64,000 nt of DNA. It comes from Octopus sinensis (lineage: Eukaryota). The stretch lies in NCBI RefSeq assembly GCF_006345805.1, contig NC_043005.1, forward strand, positions 61,318,001 to 61,382,000. Reading direction: 5' to 3'. The notes beneath the pieces were generated by a model. That model searched no databases. It was not told the DNA's origin and saw only the letters and a program-made list of their open reading frames with translations. Positions 5,498 through 64,000 of the stretch are shown piece by piece; the stretch's first letter is position 1, and each line of letters begins with the position of its first letter. The position numbers were made by a program, and so were the translations under genes.

Positions 5498-5516
5498 TAA
5501 TAATAATAATAATAAT

Positions 5517-8089
5517 ATGGCAAAAAATTCTACAGGGAAATAGGGAAGGAGAAAGTAACCGTTAAAGACCCCCCTCCCATGGAAGAAGTTCAAAACTTCT
5601 GGAAAAGGATTTGGAGTGACAAGAAGACGTACAACATAAATGCAGACTGGATTATACAAACTGAAGGATCCTACCAAAATTTACAACAACAAGCATGGGA
5701 AGACATCACAATAGCAGACCTAAGAAAGGCACTCACGAAGGCCCATAATTGGAAATCCCCCGGTAAAGATAGGGTGCTGAACTTCTGGCTCGCATCGCTC
5801 CCATGCGCACACGGTAAGCTAGTTCAGCTGCTCAATGGAGTTATGAGAGACCCAAAGAAAACACCTGAATGGTTAGCAAGTGGCATTACTTACCTACTCC
5901 CAAAGAATAACGAAACCAACCTTTCAAAAAACTATCGGCCTATAACCTGTCTATCCACCACGTATAAAATCCTAACATCTATCCTGGCGGAGAAAACATA
6001 TGCATTCATGGAGAAGAACGATATTTTCCCCATTAAACAAAAAGGGTGCCGCCGAGGCTCTTACGAATGCAAAGATCAACTGCTAATCAATCGTATGATC
6101 CTTGAGAACTGTCACAACAAGCGCTGAAATCTCAGCACCGCATGGATTGACTACAAAAAGGCCTTCGACAGTATACCGCATCCATGGATCTTGAGATCGC
6201 TGGACATCTTCAAAATTTCCCCTGTGATTTCAAACCTCCTGAAGCACAATATGTTGTTGTGGAATACGAATCTCCAATTATACCACTCTAATGGAGTACT
6301 TGCCTCAGAAAATATAAACATCAACTGTGGAATTTTTCAAGGTGACTCACTTTCACCTTTAATATTCTGCATAGCCCTAATACCTCTTACAAGTGAATTA
6401 AACAGAACAGGGTATGGGTATAAAACTGCCAATAAAAAAATAAGCCATCTATTTTATATGGATGACTTAAAACTTTATGGTAAAGACAATAATGAACTTG
6501 AAGGCCTATTGCGCACCGTGAAAGCATTCAGCGATGACATCGGGATGGAGTTTGGACTTGAGAAGTGTGCCAAGGCCACTTTCCAGAAAGGGAAAGTGAA
6601 GACCACAAATTCAGTCGTGTTAGATGTTGACACAGTCATAAGAGAGCTTGAGCAAGAACAAACATACAAATATTTAGGGATAAATGAAGGCTCTGGTATT
6701 CAGCATACAAGCATGAAAGAGAAAATCAGGAAGGAATGTTATAGGAGAGTTCGTGCAGTCTTGAAATCTGAACTGAATGCACGTAACAAGGTGTTAGCTA
6801 TAAATTCCTTAGCAGTTCCAGTTGTTACTTATAGCTACAATGTGTTGAACTGGAATATGAGTGAAGTAAAGAATATAGATAGAAAAATACGCAAGCTGCT
6901 GAGTTGTAATAGGATGCACCACCCAAGGCAGACGTAGATCGCCTTTACCTTCCCAGAGCCCAAGGAGGTCGAGGCCTGATCCAATTTGAACTAGCTTACA
7001 AAACAACCACAATTGGACTGGCCAAATATCTCGAAATATCGAATGACTGGATGCTAAAGCTCGTGGAAAATCACGAGAGACGAAAGAAGCTTCATTCTAT
7101 CATAAAGGAAAGCAAAAGATTTGCTACTGATCTCGTGCAGGATACCCAAACTGAACAACCCGAGGGAAGTACGGCAACTATTGTTGCAAAGAAGGTGAAA
7201 ATGATGGCAATGAAAAAAACGCACGGGCAATTGGCTGATAGGTGGGAGGAGAAACCTCTGCACGGCAAATATGTGACCCGCAGCAAACAAGCTGATGTTG
7301 ACCAGAAGCAAACCCATCAGTGGCTACGGAGCTCAGGGCTAAAAGCAGAGAGCGAAGGTTTCATCCTGGCTGCTCAAGATCAAAGCCTATTAATCCGGAA
7401 CTACCAGGCCAATGTGATGAAAAATGGAGCAGACCCAAAATGCCGATTCTGCAACGACATGATTGAAACAGTGGACCACCTAATCTCTGGATGTAAAGTC
7501 TTAGCACCAGTGGAGTATAAATTAAGACATGACAGAGTTGGCCAATATCTCCACTGGCTAATAAGTCGGCATTACAATATCAAAACTGCCGACAAGTGGT
7601 ATAATCACCACCCTGAGGCTGTAACTGAAGGAGAAAATGTAACCATTCTGTGGGACTTTCCAGTACATACAGACCGAACCATCAAGGCCAATAAACCATG
7701 TATTGTTGTGAAAGACCAAAACAATAAAGTTTGCTTATTGATCGACATGAGCATCCCCTGTGATCATAATATCTCAGCGAAAGAGTTTGACAAGCTCAGA
7801 AAATATAAAGACCTACTCATTGAAATTGAGAAAATGTGGCATCTCAAGGCGGTTACAATACCAGTGATCGTAGGAGCACTAGGAATGATCAAGAAGGGAA
7901 CCGAAAATTATATGAGAATGATCCCTGGCTTACCATCTATTTTAATTTAACTTTAAAAAGAAAAAAAAATGAACGAACTACTGAGTTTGGTTTAATGGCC
8001 TACCAATGTATACTATGAGTTTCTTTGCCCTAGGAGTCGGGAAGACACTCGGCAAGAAATGGAAGCAAATTTGAAAGAAGAAAAAAAAA

Positions 8090-16937: not shown

Positions 16938-16975
<38 letters not shown>

Positions 16976-16984
16976 TAATAATAA

Positions 16985-18646
16985 TGAAAGCATTCAGCGA
17001 TGACGTCGGGATGGAGTTTGGACTTGAGAAGTGTGCCAAGGCCACTTTCCAGAAAGGGAAAGTGAAGACCACAAATTCAGTCGTGTTAGATGTTGACACA
17101 GTCATAAGAGAGCTTGAGCAAGAACAAACATACAAATATTTAGGGATAAATGAAGGCTCTCGTATTCAGCATGCAAGCATGAAAGAGAAAATCAGGAAGG
17201 AATGTTATAGGAGAGTTCATGCAGTCCTGAAATCTGAACTAAATGCACGTAACAAGGTGTTAGCTATAAATTCCTTAGCAGTTCCAGTTGTTACTTATAG
17301 CTACAATGTGTTGAACTGGAATATGAGTGAAGTAAAGAATATAGATAGAAAAATACGCAAGCTGCTGAGTTGTAATAGGATGCACCACCCAAAGGCAGAC
17401 GTAGATCGCCTTTACCTTCCAGAGCCCAAGGAGGTCGAGGCCTGATCCAATTTGAACTAGCTTACAAAACAACCACAATTGGACTGGCCAAATATCTCGA
17501 AATATCGAATGACTGGATGCTAAAGCTCGTGGAAAATCACGAGAGACGAAAGAAGCTTCATTCTATCATCAAGGAAAGCAAAAAATTTGTTATTGATCTC
17601 GTGCAGGATACCCAGACTGAACAACCCGAGGGAAGTACGGCAACTTTTGTTGCAAAGAAGGTGAAAATGATGGCAATGAAGAAAGCGCACGAGCAATTGG
17701 CTGATAGGTGGGAGGAGAAACCTCTGCACGCCAAATATGTGACCCGCAGCAAACAAGCTGATGTTGACCAGAAGCAAACCCATCAGTAGCTACGGAGCTC
17801 AGGGCTAAAAGCAGAGAGCGAAGGTTTCATCCTGGCTGCTCAAGATCAAAGCCTATTAACCCGGAACTACCAGGCCAATGTGATGAAAAATGGAGGAGAC
17901 CCAAAATGCCGATTCTACAACGACATGATTGAAACAGTGGACCACCTAATCTCTGGATGTAAAGTCTTAGCACCAGTGGAGTATAAATTAAGACATGACA
18001 GAGTTGGCCAATATCTCCACTGGCTAATAAGTCGGCATTACAATATCAAAACTGCCGACAAGTGGTATAATCACCACCCTGAGGCTGTAACTGAAGGAGA
18101 AAATGTAACCATTCTGTGGGACTTTCCAGTACATACAGACCGAACCATCAAGGCCAATAAACCAGATATTGTTGTGAAAGACCAAAACAATAAAGTTTGC
18201 TAATTGATCGACATGAGCATCCCCTGTGATCATAATATCTCAGCGAAAGAGTTTGACAAGCTCAGAAAATATAAAGACCTACTCATTGAAATTGAGAAAA
18301 TGTGGCATCTCAAGGCGGTTACAATACCAGTGATCGTAGGAGCACTAGGAATGATCAAGAAGGGAACCCAAAATTATATGAGAATGATCCCTGGCTTACC
18401 ATCCCTGCAAGAAGTGCAAAAGATTGTCTTAACTGGTACATCACACGTATTGAGAAGAGCATTGTCGATGTGAGAACTGTTGCTGCTCATGTATTTTAAT
18501 TTAACTTTAAAAAAAAAAAAAAAAAATGAACGAACTACTGAGTTTGGTTTAATGGCCTACCAATGTATACTATGAGTTTCTTTGCCCTAGGAGTCGGGAA
18601 GACACTCGGCAAGAAATGGAAGCAAATTTGAAAGAAGAAAAAAAAA

Positions 18647-29052: not shown

Positions 29053-29087
<35 letters not shown>

Positions 29088-29250
29088 ATACATACATATA
29101 TATATATATATGAATGTTATGTATATGTATTCATTATATATATATATATACATATACATGCATACTTATACCTATATATATATAAACATATATATATATA
29201 AACATATATATATATATATATATATATAAACATATATATATATATATATA

Positions 29251-31815
29251 AGTAGGTGAATGAATTATCCTGTGTTTCTCGTCAGCATGGAAAATTCGTT
29301 TAACCGAAACCTGGGTAGCAAATTCACGTCAGAAACACGGTTGAAGCGACCTGTCAAGGGTAGTAACTCCGGGTTCATGTGCAGAAATGTGTGTGTTGTA
29401 TATGAATAAATGAAAGAATGGAGTCACAAACAGAACTTTCACACTAACCCAGCATTGCGGCTCATATGCCCTTCCAGTTCAGACATCGGTACCCTTAGTA
29501 AATACATATTAGATAAGTATATCCCTATATTAATTAATAAATTAAAACTTAGCTTATGGTCCAATTCTGTTCAAGTCGTAGATTGGTTCACCTCTATTAC
29601 TGATAAGGCCAACACTAAATTTATCCAATTCGATATATCTAGTTTCTATTCTTCAATCAACCCTATTATACTTAATAAGGCCCTAAGGCACGCACACAAT
29701 AAGGCAGGCCTCTCCATGGAGGAAATTAGCATATTGACTGCTAGGAAATCTTTCATCCAGTTCGATAGCAAGTTGTGGGTCCGTACCGACACCCCTAATG
29801 CATTTGATGTACTAATGGGAAGTACAGACAGCGCCCAGATAGCCGATTTAGTCGGGATTTATATTCTTTATGAAATGGCCGACCAATTCCCAGACATCTG
29901 TGGAGGTCTTTATCGCGGCGATTGTCTGCTTTACCTCCAAAACGTTTCGAACCAAAAAATACAGAAGGTTAAGAACAGATTAGTTAGGTTTTTTAGTAGA
30001 ATGGGCTTGCGCATAGGTTTTGACGATGAATTAACTAAAGCCAACTTCTTAGACATTACCCTCAATTTGCAGAATAACTCATAAACCTTCCACAAATCAT
30101 AAACCTTCCACAAATCTTAAGTATATTAGCATTTTCAGTAATCATGCCAGGCCAATTACCGATAATTTAGTTTAAAACATCTCTCTGAGACTGTCCAAAT
30201 TATCTGCTAATGTCGACATCTTTAACCAAAAGGCAGACTTCTATAACGCCGCCTTGTTAAGAGCCGGTTATAAGGAGAAAGTGTCATACATCGACTCGTA
30301 ATAGGAATAATGATTTCAATTCTAATAGTGCCAGCAACCCTGTACATAAAATATATTCTTTACGGACTAGGGGAGGTAAGCGCCATGCAACCCCAAATTG
30401 CCAACCCAGAAACGTTCCCCTTACTATCACAAATAACACTAAGAACAATTCAAAGGCCACAAAAAACTGTATCTGGTTCGTAATACCTTTCGGAAAACAA
30501 ATTAAATCGAACCTTCCCTTACAGTTCCGTGAAGCCGTTGCTAGGAACTTTCCCAGAAATTCTAGATATCATTCTATTATCAATTCCCACAACGTCAGAA
30601 TCGCTTTCTCTAACACTATGAATCTTTCACAAATTATATCTTCCCACAATACCAAGCTGCTAAACAAAGATTCTTCACCCGGGAGTTCCAACACTAATCT
30701 TGCTAATTCCAACCCATCATACAATCATAATAATAGGAATAGTATTAATAGTAACAGCATTAGTAGCAGCGAAAGTGTTAACAATGATAATATTAATAAT
30801 AGTATTAGTCGTGTTAATAACAACGGTAGTGTTGATGGTAACAACAATAACGGTATTATTGTCGGTGGTATTACTGGTTGTAATACCATTAATAATACTA
30901 ATAATAATAGAAATAGTGTAGTTGTTAGCGCTAATAATAATGGTAACAACAATCATAACAATAAAAACTTCGTTTCGATCTCGGAGGACAGCCCAACAGA
31001 ATTAAATATTTCGTCTAGTAATTCTAAGATGAAGAATTCTATTTACCAGGGTAGATTTTCTTCCGATACCGATGTCTTCTTCTATATAGCAGCGTCCACT
31101 TCCCAGTTATCCAAGAGAATTTCAAACCACTATTCAACATTCAGGGATAGTAAGACACGACATAGTACAGGGCTAAGTAAATTAGTTTGGCGTCTTAAAG
31201 ACAACAATATAATTTTCAAGTTAGATTGGTTCATACTGTCTGTATCCTTTCCTTTTGATAAGGGCAGGAGATTTTGTAACATTTGTACCTCTGAACTCTT
31301 CCATGATCTTTTCTCTAAGGTTCCCCTAGTAAACACACTCATAGAAAAATCATACAAATGTAAACACTGGCAGAAACACACTTTCTACTCATATAAATGA
31401 TAACGATAGTCACTGTGGTTTGAACAATTAGCTTTACGTCCACCCCACTTCTACAGAGAAATTCTTTCCTAAGCCTTCGAACATTCTTTCAATCAACGTA
31501 CCCTTCTTCTCCACTTGTTCCCTACCTATTATTACTTTATCCCTTCTCTTCCTACTATCTATTTTTGACGTCAATTCTTCTAACGGTTTTTTTTTAAAAA
31601 CACTCATTATCGCTTTGTTTACCATGTAGGCAATCATCGAAATTTTTGTTTCTCTTGTTGTCGAGAGAGGCTCCCTTTCTTTCCTGATGAGAGGATTGCA
31701 TAATGCACCCTTTATTCCTTTGGAATGAAAACATGCTGTCTTCGAAACATGTGTCGAGAGTAAAGGAATTTTCTTAACATCTTCGTTCGACTCCATTCTT
31801 TCATTTATTCATATA
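29251..31815 (+). mobile_element. Penelope-like retroelement, Naiad type (RT + GIY-YIG), 5'-truncated, pseudogenised, in (TA)n
   Basis: RT: PALRLICP, FIQFDISSFY, MGSTDSAQIADLVG, LYRGD (YRDD mutated), NFLDITL. EN: SIYQ..FYIAAS..KRISNH..CNICTSE..LVN..CKH. 29399-29425 is the reverse complement of 31789-31815 (short inverted pLTR). Confidence 0.92.
31671..31768 (+). ncRNA. Type I hammerhead ribozyme in the PLE 3'UTR
   Basis: CTGATGA at 31684; stem II gaggattgcat/atgctgtcttc; GAAA at 31744; stem III AC-atgt-GT; cleavage triplet GTC at 31753-31755; stem I ctttc/gagag. Confidence 0.85.
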
Positions 31816-31861
31816 TAATATATATATATATATATATATAAACATATATATATATACATAT

Positions 31862-61340: not shown

Positions 61341-61381
<41 letters not shown>

Positions 61382-61599
61382 ATATATATATTTTTGTGAA
61401 ATAGAAAGATGAATAATCTTGTTGCAGATTAATCAAAAGTTTAACCGATACCTTGATAGCAAAAATCACAGCAGAAGACAGCACGGTTGGAGGTACAACC
61501 ATATGGTGTTGCAACCGTGCGTTGGTGCGGATAATTGAATTTTAATATTATTAGTGAATTGAAGAAATGGAGTTGAACGAAGATTGAACAGAAATCGTT

Positions 61600-61695
61600 T
61601 TATTGCATTCTACACGTGTTTCGAAAGGCACAATTTACCAAATTCCGATTGAATAAGGAGACCATATTGTGTCTTTCTCTTCAGGAAGAAATAGG
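61600..61695 (-). ncRNA. Type I hammerhead ribozyme in the inverted pLTR
   Basis: Minus strand: ttc-CTGAAGA-gaaagacacaat...attgtgcctttc-GAAA-c-acgt-GTA-gaa. Confidence 0.85.
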
Positions 61696-61976
61696 AAATC
61701 CGTTGGAAAAAACAAAAAACAGAACAGAGGCGGAGCAAAACAAATCGAACGAGGCTCCTAAGAGCCCATGGCCAAACTGTTTATCAATGTATGTTGAAAA
61801 CTGGTGGTGGGTGCGTTGAAGGTTTTAACGGGTCAGGCAGCGGTCATTCCAGTGGGTGGGAGCACGGGGTGCTTAGATGTTCTTTGTGACCGAGACTAAA
61901 GTTCTGACTATTTAAAGAATATTAGGTGTATTATTTCCTTACATTATTTCCTTACATTATTTCCTTTAAGGAAATA

Positions 61977-64000
61977 ATGTTGAAACACGGAATTCAAATG
62001 AGAACGCAGCCGCTTAGCCCTAAGCAACCTAGATTCATAGTGAAGGACCATAAACCGAACTTCCACACCAACCCAGCGCTAAGACTCATATGCCCTGCTA
62101 GCTCTGATATCGGGATAATCAGTAAGTACATTTTAGATAAATATATCCCTAGTTTAGTAAACAAACTGAAGCTCAGCCTTTGGGCCAACTCCTCGCAGGT
62201 AGTGAAGTGGTTCTCTTCCATCCCCAATAAGAACCGTACTAGGTTCATCCAGTTCGATATCGCCAGCTTCTACCCCTCGATTAACCCTAGTGTACTAAAT
62301 AAGGCCCTTTGGCATGCTCACAACAAGGCTGGCCTCACCAGAGAAGAAATAGATATCATTTTAGTTGCCAGGAAATCGTTTATTAAGTTTGATAATAAGT
62401 TGTGGATCCGTAAAGATACTCCCAATGAATTTGATGTGCCTATGGGTAGTTCGGATAGTGCGCAGATAGCCGATTTGGTCGGTATATATATTCTCTACGA
62501 ATTGTCCGACCAATTCCCAGAGATCGCGGGTGGCCTGTATCGTGACGATTGTCTGTTTTACCTGCAAAACACCACGAACAGAATAGTGCAGAAAACTAAC
62601 AGCAGGTTAACTAGGTTTTTTAATAGAATGGGCATGAATATAGTTTTTGATAATGAACTCACCAAGGCAAATTTCCTAGACGTTACACTTAACCTTAATA
62701 GCGACTCATACTGCCCTTACCATAAGCCTTCCACTAATTTGAAGTATGTCAGTGTCTTCTCCAATCATGCCAAAACCGTAACAGACAATTTGGTTAAAAA
62801 CATCTCTCTAAGATTGTCTGGCTTGTCCGCTAGTGCCGATATTTTTATGCAGAAAGCGGAATTTTATAACGCCGCACTATCCAAGGCCGGTTATAGGCAG
62901 AAGGTAATTTATATTGATCCGGCCCTTCCGATGACATCATTCGGTCATCAGGATAGGGCCGTCTATAATAACATTAATAATTTAAGTAGTGACGGGAGCG
63001 CGGCGGGTGCTGGGGCAGTCGCTCCCGCATTTAATTTAGCGAACAAGGATAATTATCGGTCCGGGGGATCTCAAACTAACCCAAAACCCGTTATTCATCC
63101 GAGAATCACCCACCCGAATGCGAGAGCTGGCGTCCCGACCCATCACATAAATAGGAACAAGCATATAGGGTTTGTAATTCCCTTTGGTAAGCAGATTAGA
63201 ACTAACCTCCCCCTCATGTTTCGACAAGCCATCGCCAATAACTTCCCCAGAAATTCCAAATATTACTCCACGGTTAATTCGCATAAAGTTAGGATCGCTT
63301 TCTCCAACACTAAAAACCTCGCCCAGATAGTCGCCTCCCATAATAATAGGATGCTTACTAAGACCCTACCACCTTTTTCCGGAGGCACAGCTTCTTCCGC
63401 TCCCGGTTTAACGCTCAGTAGGAATAATAATAGTAGTAATAATGATATGAGAGCCAGTACAGTGACTCATAATCTCAGCTCCAACCAGGGATTATATACT
63501 AGGGGTATAGTTATAAATAAGGGTGATGTCATTGACGGTAACGATGACAGTAGTGGGGTGAGCGCAGCTCGGCTCGCTAGGGTAGAGAGTCCCAATAGCA
63601 ACTCCAGCATCGTTTCCGGCAATAGCAGCACCACGGGCACTAGCAATGACAGCACTCTGAGTGATAGTGTAGAATCAGGGGTTATTCCGTTAGTTAATAG
63701 TGACGTAGTGGAAAATAAAGTAGTAAGCGGCTGCAGTTCTCGCAACAAATATAGTAACAGTAACGCAGTTCTAATTTCAGAAACTAATCCTAATAGAATA
63801 AGGTTCACGTCGGTGAACTCCAAGATCAGAAACGCCGTCTACCAATGTAAGGTTTACACGGACTCAGATGTCTACTCTTATGTCGGGGCCTCATCGTCAA
63901 GATTGTCCTCACGAATCTCCAACCATTACGCAACTTTTCGAGACGTGAATAAATGCCAGACCACGGGACTTAGCAAGCTAATATGGCGATTGAAGAATAC
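61977..64000 (+). CDS. PLE reverse transcriptase/GIY-YIG endonuclease ORF, uninterrupted to the window end (absent from the ORF track)
   Basis: Hand translation: MLKHGIQMRTQPLSPKQPRFIVKDHKPNF..FDIASFYPSI..PMGSSDSAQIADLVG..LYRDD..NFLDVTL..SNH..AVYQC..YVGAS..RISNHY..LSKLIWRLKN, no stop; natural N-terminus probably truncated. Confidence 0.9.
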   Translation, partial: MLKHGIQMRTQPLSPKQPRFIVKDHKPNFHTNPALRLICPASSDIGIISKYILDKYIPSLVNKLKLSLWANSSQVVKWFSSIPNKNRTRFIQFDIASFYPSINPSVLNKALWHAHNKAGLTREEIDIILVARKSFIKFDNKLWIRKDTPNEFDVPMGSSDSAQIADLVGIYILYELSDQFPEIAGGLYRDDCLFYLQNTTNRIVQKTNSRLTRFFNRMGMNIVFDNELTKANFLDVTLNLNSDSYCPYHKPSTNLKYVSVFSNHAKTVTDNLVKNISLRLSGLSASADIFMQKAEFYNAALSKAGYRQKVIYIDPALPMTSFGHQDRAVYNNINNLSSDGSAAGAGAVAPAFNLANKDNYRSGGSQTNPKPVIHPRITHPNARAGVPTHHINRNKHIGFVIPFGKQIRTNLPLMFRQAIANNFPRNSKYYSTVNSHKVRIAFSNTKNLAQIVASHNNRMLTKTLPPFSGGTASSAPGLTLSRNNNSSNNDMRASTVTHNLSSNQGLYTRGIVINKGDVIDGNDDSSGVSAARLARVESPNSNSSIVSGNSSTTGTSNDSTLSDSVESGVIPLVNSDVVENKVVSGCSSRNKYSNSNAVLISETNPNRIRFTSVNSKIRNAVYQCKVYTDSDVYSYVGASSSRLSSRISNHYATFRDVNKCQTTGLSKLIWRLKN

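Follow-up and report, generated by a model that had tools for sequence, protein, structure and literature searches.

The window analysed here, a stretch of 64,000 nucleotides of the Octopus sinensis genome (NCBI RefSeq assembly GCF_006345805.1, contig NC_043005.1, positions 61,318,001 to 61,382,000 of the forward strand), holds two diverged Penelope-like elements (PLEs), each present as a head-to-head insertion in (TA)n-rich DNA. In both, a segment of about 150 nt lies between the upstream (TA)n and the inverted copy of the element's 3' end, and the direct 3' ends of both elements meet (TA)n without it. We asked where this segment, hereafter the tail, originates, whether it represents a cis-acting module as the original prediction proposed, and why a single arm of each insertion carries it. 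Site A denotes the element end without the tail and site B the end with it; A arms and B arms terminate at the respective sites (Table 1).

Table 1. Features of the two PLEs in the window, with positions numbered from its first nucleotide.
Feature	Position	Strand	Basis
(TA)n-rich target, left flank of element 1	29055..29250	.	Sequence
Family 1 tail, 148 nt: leader from site A (29398/29399) to site B (29250/29251)	29251..29398	-	Tandem copies, clustered ends
Retained part of G-free single-stranded loop holding site B	29251..29261	-	Loop prediction
Predicted hairpin P3	29262..29297	-	81% of cells paired; 5/9 pairs with double changes
5' strand of stem P2 (partner just before the ATG, missing from the element 1 insertion)	29301..29311	-	Covariation
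Conserved TGCTA(C) box	29315..29322	-	Alignments
Predicted irregular hairpin P1 after site A, weakly supported	29325..29382	-	Base pairing counts
Inverted 27-nt copy of the 3' end of element 1 (remainder of B arm)	29399..29425	-	blastn, 29425-29396 vs 31789-31818
Element 1 A arm: broken, 5'-truncated ORF, RT then C-terminal endonuclease	29426..31400	+	Four pieces vs intact relative
Element 1 hammerhead ribozyme motif, 3'UTR (predicted)	31684..31755	+	Core pattern; stems by eye
Element 1 A arm 3' end at site A, joined to (TA)n	31790..31815	+	Sequence, end mapping
(TA)n target, left flank of element 2	61341..61392	.	Sequence
Family 2 tail	61395..61545	-	P1 61467-61528, box 61457-61463, P2 5' strand 61441-61452, P3 61410-61435
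Element 2 B arm: inverted 3'UTR copy, ~395 nt	61546..61940	-	Hammerhead motif 61611-61684
Element 2: short-repeat junction, then A arm with truncated ORF	61941..64000	+	Continues beyond the window

Class of the two elements

Both elements had been labelled Naiad-type. Naiads are described as bearing an N-terminal endonuclease and lacking a canonical hammerhead (PMC8557442). In elements 1 and 2 the reverse transcriptase (RT) precedes an endonuclease-like C-terminal domain instead of following an N-terminal GIY-YIG endonuclease, and a hammerhead core is present in each, so that the label was abandoned. The Hydra clade comprises C-terminal EN+ PLEs, in which the RT is followed by the endonuclease (PMC8557442, section 11). 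Translations and full-length homologs displayed a C-terminal GIY-YIG domain with CCHH absent, CxxC before E and CxH after N, together with a canonical hammerhead and insertion into (TA)n; the DKT motif was found in families 2-5. As a Pfam search of the PLE proteins returned no match, the name of the endonuclease domain rests on its motifs. The RW-x position reads RWL in families 1-3, RWK in family 4 and RWR in family 5 (RWK in Hydra), and the CxCX5C linker is absent from families 2 and 3 and from element 1 and present in family 5 and in the nearest homologs, P0001 and P0002. Since the linker is missing in families 1-3, we use the term Hydra-type and do not claim strict membership; judged from their sequences, the window elements are Hydra-type PLEs and not Naiads.

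A homolog search returned 87 proteins at 26-40% identity among 8000 scored candidates, and in a quick unrooted tree, made without named reference PLEs, families 1-3 fell on a long branch beside P0001-P0003. In these families (L125, L128 and window positions 30261-31400) an N/S-rich stretch replaces the CxCX5C linker, which is thought to help (TA)n targeting, and yet insertion occurs in (TA)n. Two more Hydra-type families of the O. sinensis genome (L343/L432 and L362/L433) have tails that are short, and their form of the hairpin described below reads ACTC/GAGT.

The A arm of element 2 contains an internal deletion and reaches its tailless end at site A at 64202 in window numbering (locus L033). 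Its inversion junction (61941-61990) carries three short direct repeats and a small palindrome, possibly deriving from repeated template slips. An unrelated, broken non-LTR retrotransposon was also observed at 5516-7950 (+), with a fragment at 16939-17445 (+), matching Pfam RVT_1 and, weakly, zf-RVT.

Origin and ends of the tail

The two segments, the motifs quoted from them, the element 2 hairpin and the tailless 3' end of element 1 (31815) were all confirmed in the sequence, and the proposed homology of the segments held, with a local alignment score of 104 against 51.6 ± 6.4 (maximum 86) in 2000 dinucleotide shuffles. The supposed confinement to the inverted repeat did not: the tail also terminates direct single copies and, in tandem arrays, runs into the ORF start. 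Searches of the O. sinensis genome with the two tails gave 1639 and 1178 candidates; the best 30 of 40 scored matches were examined for each, and all 60 tail loci adjoined the element's own 3' end, which speaks against a separate repeat family. Fifty-seven of them continue into (TA)n, and 3, from one tandem array, continue for about 50 nt to an ATG. Loci recovered with protein N-termini from family 1, family 2 and a third family displayed the order hammerhead, site A, tail, site B, ATG. Since tandem and full-length copies of all three families continue through the tail as far as the ATG, the tail represents the beginning of the leader of the following unit; in tandem copies it makes up the first ~150 nt of that leader and leaves ~50 nt to the ATG.

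Measured from the ATG, arms terminate in two clusters, at about -203 to -210 (A) and at about -41 to -51 (B), TA-like sequence leaving the exact end ambiguous by a few bases. Bimodal insertion ends at A and B were found in five families, and single arms also end at A and at B. Tail length was 148-153 nt in families 1-3, ~70-75 nt in families 4 and 5 and ~55-75 nt in Hydra-type elements other than families 1-3; these tails agree with the definition of the described PLE tail but not with its length of 30-40 nt.

The start of two family 1 B arms (L002 and L018) coincides exactly with the predicted site of hammerhead cleavage, at -262 relative to the ATG, and no cluster of B-arm starts at this cut was seen in families 2 and 3. 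At L021 and L052, entire inverted A+B insertions are duplicated in tandem inside (TA)n.

Conservation and predicted fold of the leader

The tail had been taken as selectively conserved. It is conserved between families (z of 4.5-8.2 against shuffles), but no more than the neighbouring stretches from the hammerhead to site A (z 8.6-12.5) and from site B to the ATG (z 3.9-7.4). Its identity between families is modest (0.58-0.59 against 0.51-0.53 when shuffled), and four-fold sites are near saturation (0.35-0.47 identity). Most of the 3'UTR indeed does not align between the families of the two elements (upstream 3'UTR, z -0.2), the upstream 3'UTR being unalignable in two of three family comparisons. 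On these alignments, the conserved unit is the whole cassette of ~340 nt from hammerhead to ATG, with the tail in its middle.

In 23 leaders the core of the tail is able to pair with the bases just before the ATG (P2; 91% paired, double changes in 4 of 11 pairs), and the resulting stem encloses hairpin P3, the loop holding site B and a further hairpin, P4. The site B loop measures 24-26 nt in all 23 leaders, with 1 G in 582 letters. Full leaders carry a second TGCTA(C) copy before the 3' strand of P2, giving one box per strand. Hairpin P1 was paired at 95% in its 3-bp base and at 58% in its middle stem; RNAalifold returned no consensus for it and recovered only P2 in the 3' domain.

Over the full structure 82.6% of cells were paired, compared with 75.8% in shuffles and 30-48% in slid controls, and 54 double-change cells were counted against 28.4 in shuffles, cell counts being inflated by related sequences; the number of pairs with a double change did not beat the shuffles (81/500). 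An alignment with one misplaced row (L276) contributed to no count. G-U wobbles agree with the sense strand. Families 1-3 fold the 3' domain alike, and whole-leader energy beat shuffles in one of the three (z -5.8, -0.5 and -1.0). No match was returned by an Rfam covariance-model search of the leaders of 4 O. sinensis loci and 7 distant loci. In this predicted fold, which is conserved, the tail supplies one half of a covarying stem whose closure lies immediately upstream of the ATG.

A repeated hairpin in distant relatives

In one metagenome scan 78 loci were kept, 64 with a locatable ATG and 51 with 150 nt upstream of it. Within these 51 leaders the motif GAGC(A/T)C occurred twice in 36, three times in 1, once in 9 and never in 5, the copies being spaced 53-74 nt, while two copies were present in none of 619 ORF windows. 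Each copy closes a GCTC/GAGC hairpin (GCTC/GAGC-ACT), one just after each end site. Among 70 hairpin instances, pairs were swapped to A-U (2) or U-A (4) and 8 were mismatched, 6 of the latter from the script taking an outer partner. Of 24 distinct leaders, 11 favoured pairing of each arm downstream of a copy with its own partner over the swapped arrangement (-10.4 against -5.5 kcal/mol). All 10 selected distant ends sit 0-4 nt before the hairpin, a selection from which L281 (end at -163) and L332 (single-motif leader) were excluded as non-fitting.

Variants of the repeated hairpin were found in families 4 and 5 of the O. sinensis genome, and the published Hydra-2_Amil consensus (supplement) terminates in an identical GCTC/GAGCACT hairpin. 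Since a covariance model of the families' leaders found none of 31 distant loci, the equation of P1 and P4 with the distant hairpins rests on layout and not on sequence. Covariation and the repeated motif support the suggestion that the tail belongs to a cis-acting RNA module for RT recognition, but this candidate module extends past the tail to the ATG.

Pairing of ends in head-to-head insertions

Queries placed upstream of site A, and blind to end type, recovered 65 head-to-head insertions of five families among the best 30 of 40-42 matches examined per DNA search (family 5: 30 of 32; matches of one insertion merged). These comprised 64 A+B, one ambiguous A+A and no B+B pairs (p 4e-18 against a free 50:50 choice). 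In families 1-3, 46 A+B pairs were assigned by script and another by eye, and the A+A pair, also from these families, lies at a three-piece locus (L211) and may be a true one; families 4 and 5 gave A+B in 9 of 9 and 8 of 8 pairs. With the upstream queries, 30 of 78 loci of families 1-3 had one assignable end only. Loci L217, L011 and L036 were paired by eye, and L076, whose end falls 15 nt early, was assigned to A. The tail queries added 37 further A+B loci and no B+B.

The two arms were compared in 76 pairs, omitting junction gaps >80 nt, L209, L211 and two duplicates. The A arm had the longer reach in 29 and the B arm in 19, and 7 B arms stop inside the tail; as either arm may reach further and B arms may stop in the tail, the arms appear to start independently of each other's extent. 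In 18 of the 76 pairs the two arms broke off no more than 10 nt apart (permutation mean 2.6, maximum 10), and arms of one insertion were closer in sequence than arms of different insertions in 45 of 54 cases. Matched breaks and similar arms are predicted by one shared template, and would also fit snap-back or later gene conversion.

Proposed mechanism and alternatives

We consider it fairly probable that the predicted fold holds two RT-endonuclease copies on one transcript and that each side of the (TA)n target primes at a different site. This reading builds on direct observations, namely the leader origin of the tail, the ends at A or B and their A+B pairing, the covarying P2 and the repeated hairpin motif; RT binding and start sites are those that we infer from the insertion ends. 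A transcript across a tandem junction, or a circle made by the hammerhead, would present site A, hairpin and stem strand, then site B, hairpin and stem strand, before the ATG. Each RT would bind its own hairpin and start a few bases 5' of it, in G-poor single strand, the two target strands each priming from one site of a shared sense RNA. The RT at B would copy the tail and then either stop or displace the first cDNA and recopy the same 3' end. Joining of the two cDNA ends would produce an inverted insertion in which one arm bears the tail and the other lacks it, and priming on one side only would leave a single arm ending at A or B. Because P2 needs sequence beyond site B, the whole signal would exist only on tandem or circular templates; circular templates, which would present the same junction, have been proposed (PMC4209133).

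In vitro, the RT of the Poseidon element PAc starts at two internal sites, the tail of 30-40 nt being the sequence between them; extension occurs on both strands of the target, the reaction needs RNA reaching past the start sites, and dimerization is predicted (Frangieh et al., PMC11167929). The two strands did not, however, differ in start site in vitro, and the PAc tail lies inside the ORF; both points count against this reading.

A single priming event followed by snap-back of the cDNA, with the second arm terminated at the other site by the endonuclease or by microhomology, seems rather unlikely. A snap-back copy cannot exceed its template, and the tailless arm is longer in 29 of the 76 pairs, including element 1 (27 nt against 2.4 kb); moreover, cDNA begun at A cannot supply the tail, and single arms end at A as well as at B. 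The explanation draws on the 18 of 76 junctions that are near-perfect palindromes, on the variants shared by the arms, on the endonuclease-mediated resolution to which Craig et al. ascribed the tail (PMC8557442), and on the need of the D. virilis endonuclease for tail sequence (as cited in PMC11167929). We regard as very unlikely an asymmetric dimer of two different subunits working on two RNAs, with A always used on one side and B on the other, on separate transcripts. Such a dimer predicts the same A+B rule and explains overlapping arms without strand displacement, but does not predict the matched 5' breaks (18/76 against 2.6) or the shared variants (45/54), unless both RNAs came from one donor locus.

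Highly improbable, and compatible with twin priming, is that the conserved features of the 5'UTR constitute a short spliceosomal intron (with a promoter), on the model of D. virilis Penelope, where a 75-nt intron occupies this place (PMC8557442). The G-free loop would serve as branch and pyrimidine tract, and splicing would free the ATG; of the 23 leaders, 22 open P2 with GT and 18 have a YAG-like AG after site B, the two lying 65-80 nt apart. Against this, family 2, with 99%-identical copies, reads CCG at that place, the pairing also explains both dinucleotides, the donor context is weak, and the ends at A and B are left unexplained. Contigs of runs only presumed to be RNA contain no GT-AG joint and constitute no evidence either way for splicing; loose ends into (TA)n occur in them at A and B (one set) and at B (the other set). 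Finally, the view that the tail is a separate repeat or neutral passenger sequence can lean on its modest identity between families and on the examination of only the best 30 matches per search, but is almost certainly wrong, given the junction of every tail locus examined with the element's 3' end, the fixed place before the ORF, the covariation and the saturation of neutral sites.

Twin priming as set out above uses a sense template; an antisense template was earlier proposed for inversions (PMC3846280). One array with units in both orientations carries sense-strand A-to-G changes, a single case that argues for a sense template. That Hydra-type PLEs possess an undescribed, clade-wide two-fold RNA scaffold, in which a long stem closing at the start codon joins two copies of a hairpin motif and which seats an RT-endonuclease dimer, with programmed twin priming as the source of tails and inverted repeats, has in our estimate an even chance of being correct; if so, this stem could also decide whether the RNA is translated or copied.

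The array in question, a family 1 tandem/inverted array (L031-L032, G000:C18:16643600-16656400), is hypermutated from A to G on the sense strand, one unit carrying 205 A>G changes and no more than 11 of any other type. The context is ADAR-like (5' neighbour U 0.46, A 0.28, C 0.14, G 0.07; G highest at the 3' neighbour), the leader and hammerhead are nearly spared, and the edits are common to the units (98.9% alike). Contigs of sequencing runs X1 and X2 closely match the G version, and no other such locus occurred among 204 alignments. From its substitution pattern, the array looks like a retrocopy of hyper-edited RNA; a literature search found no account of a hyper-edited PLE retrocopy.

Comparison with known systems

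A tail on one of two inverted pLTRs has already been described (PMC3846280; PMC8557442), and the origin of PLE tails and of tandem/inverted ends has been stated as an open question (PMC8557442, section 15; PMC11167929). As the PAc tail spans two RT starts, the tail studied here is a known kind of PLE feature, four to five times longer. The idea of an undescribed module survives for the predicted fold, which looks new, and not for the tail itself, for which an explanation is published (PMC11167929). The Hydra account of PMC8557442, in the sections covered, makes no mention of a leader motif or tail length, and the repeated motif, long tail and counted pairing rule were not found in the article text covered, including passages of PMC7229834 and bioRxiv 10.64898/2026.07.22.740005. 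The tail length, the predicted two-hairpin fold with its repeated motif and the A+B pairing rule look new.

The finding names a likely RNA signal for the tails, with a clade-wide motif, covarying stems and a near-absolute pairing rule. Single-hairpin mutants make the mechanism directly testable, and the repeated hairpin motif is a practical marker of Hydra element ends. As PLE RTs are the sister group of telomerase, a structure fixing the RT start also bears on template definition.

The Hydra-type leader resembles that of Poseidon PAc in the optional extension between two end sites, downstream of a hammerhead at the pLTR-ORF junction, in the G-poor start region and in the AT-rich target. Unlike the PAc tail (30-40 nt, in the ORF), the Hydra-type tail measures 148-153 nt (55-75 in others) and lies wholly in the 5'UTR, with a hairpin repeated at each site, a closing stem beside the ATG and a counted A+B pairing. 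With the Hydra clade the elements share DKT, RW-x, CxxC-E, CxH, the hammerhead and the (TA)n target (PMC8557442), whereas families 1-3 differ in the missing CxCX5C linker, in RWL for RWK and in units of 2.9-3.2 kb. Naiads have in common with them the (TA)n target, the tandem/inverted structure and the tail at one end (PMC8557442). The C-terminal endonuclease and the hammerhead set the window elements apart from Naiads. In LINE-1 twin priming, both target strands prime on one RNA, resulting in a head-to-head inversion; there, annealing of the primer decides the position of the second site, and the two arms share no overlap. In the PLEs, by contrast, neither site varies, RNA structure being the likely determinant, and in most cases the same 3' end is present in both arms.
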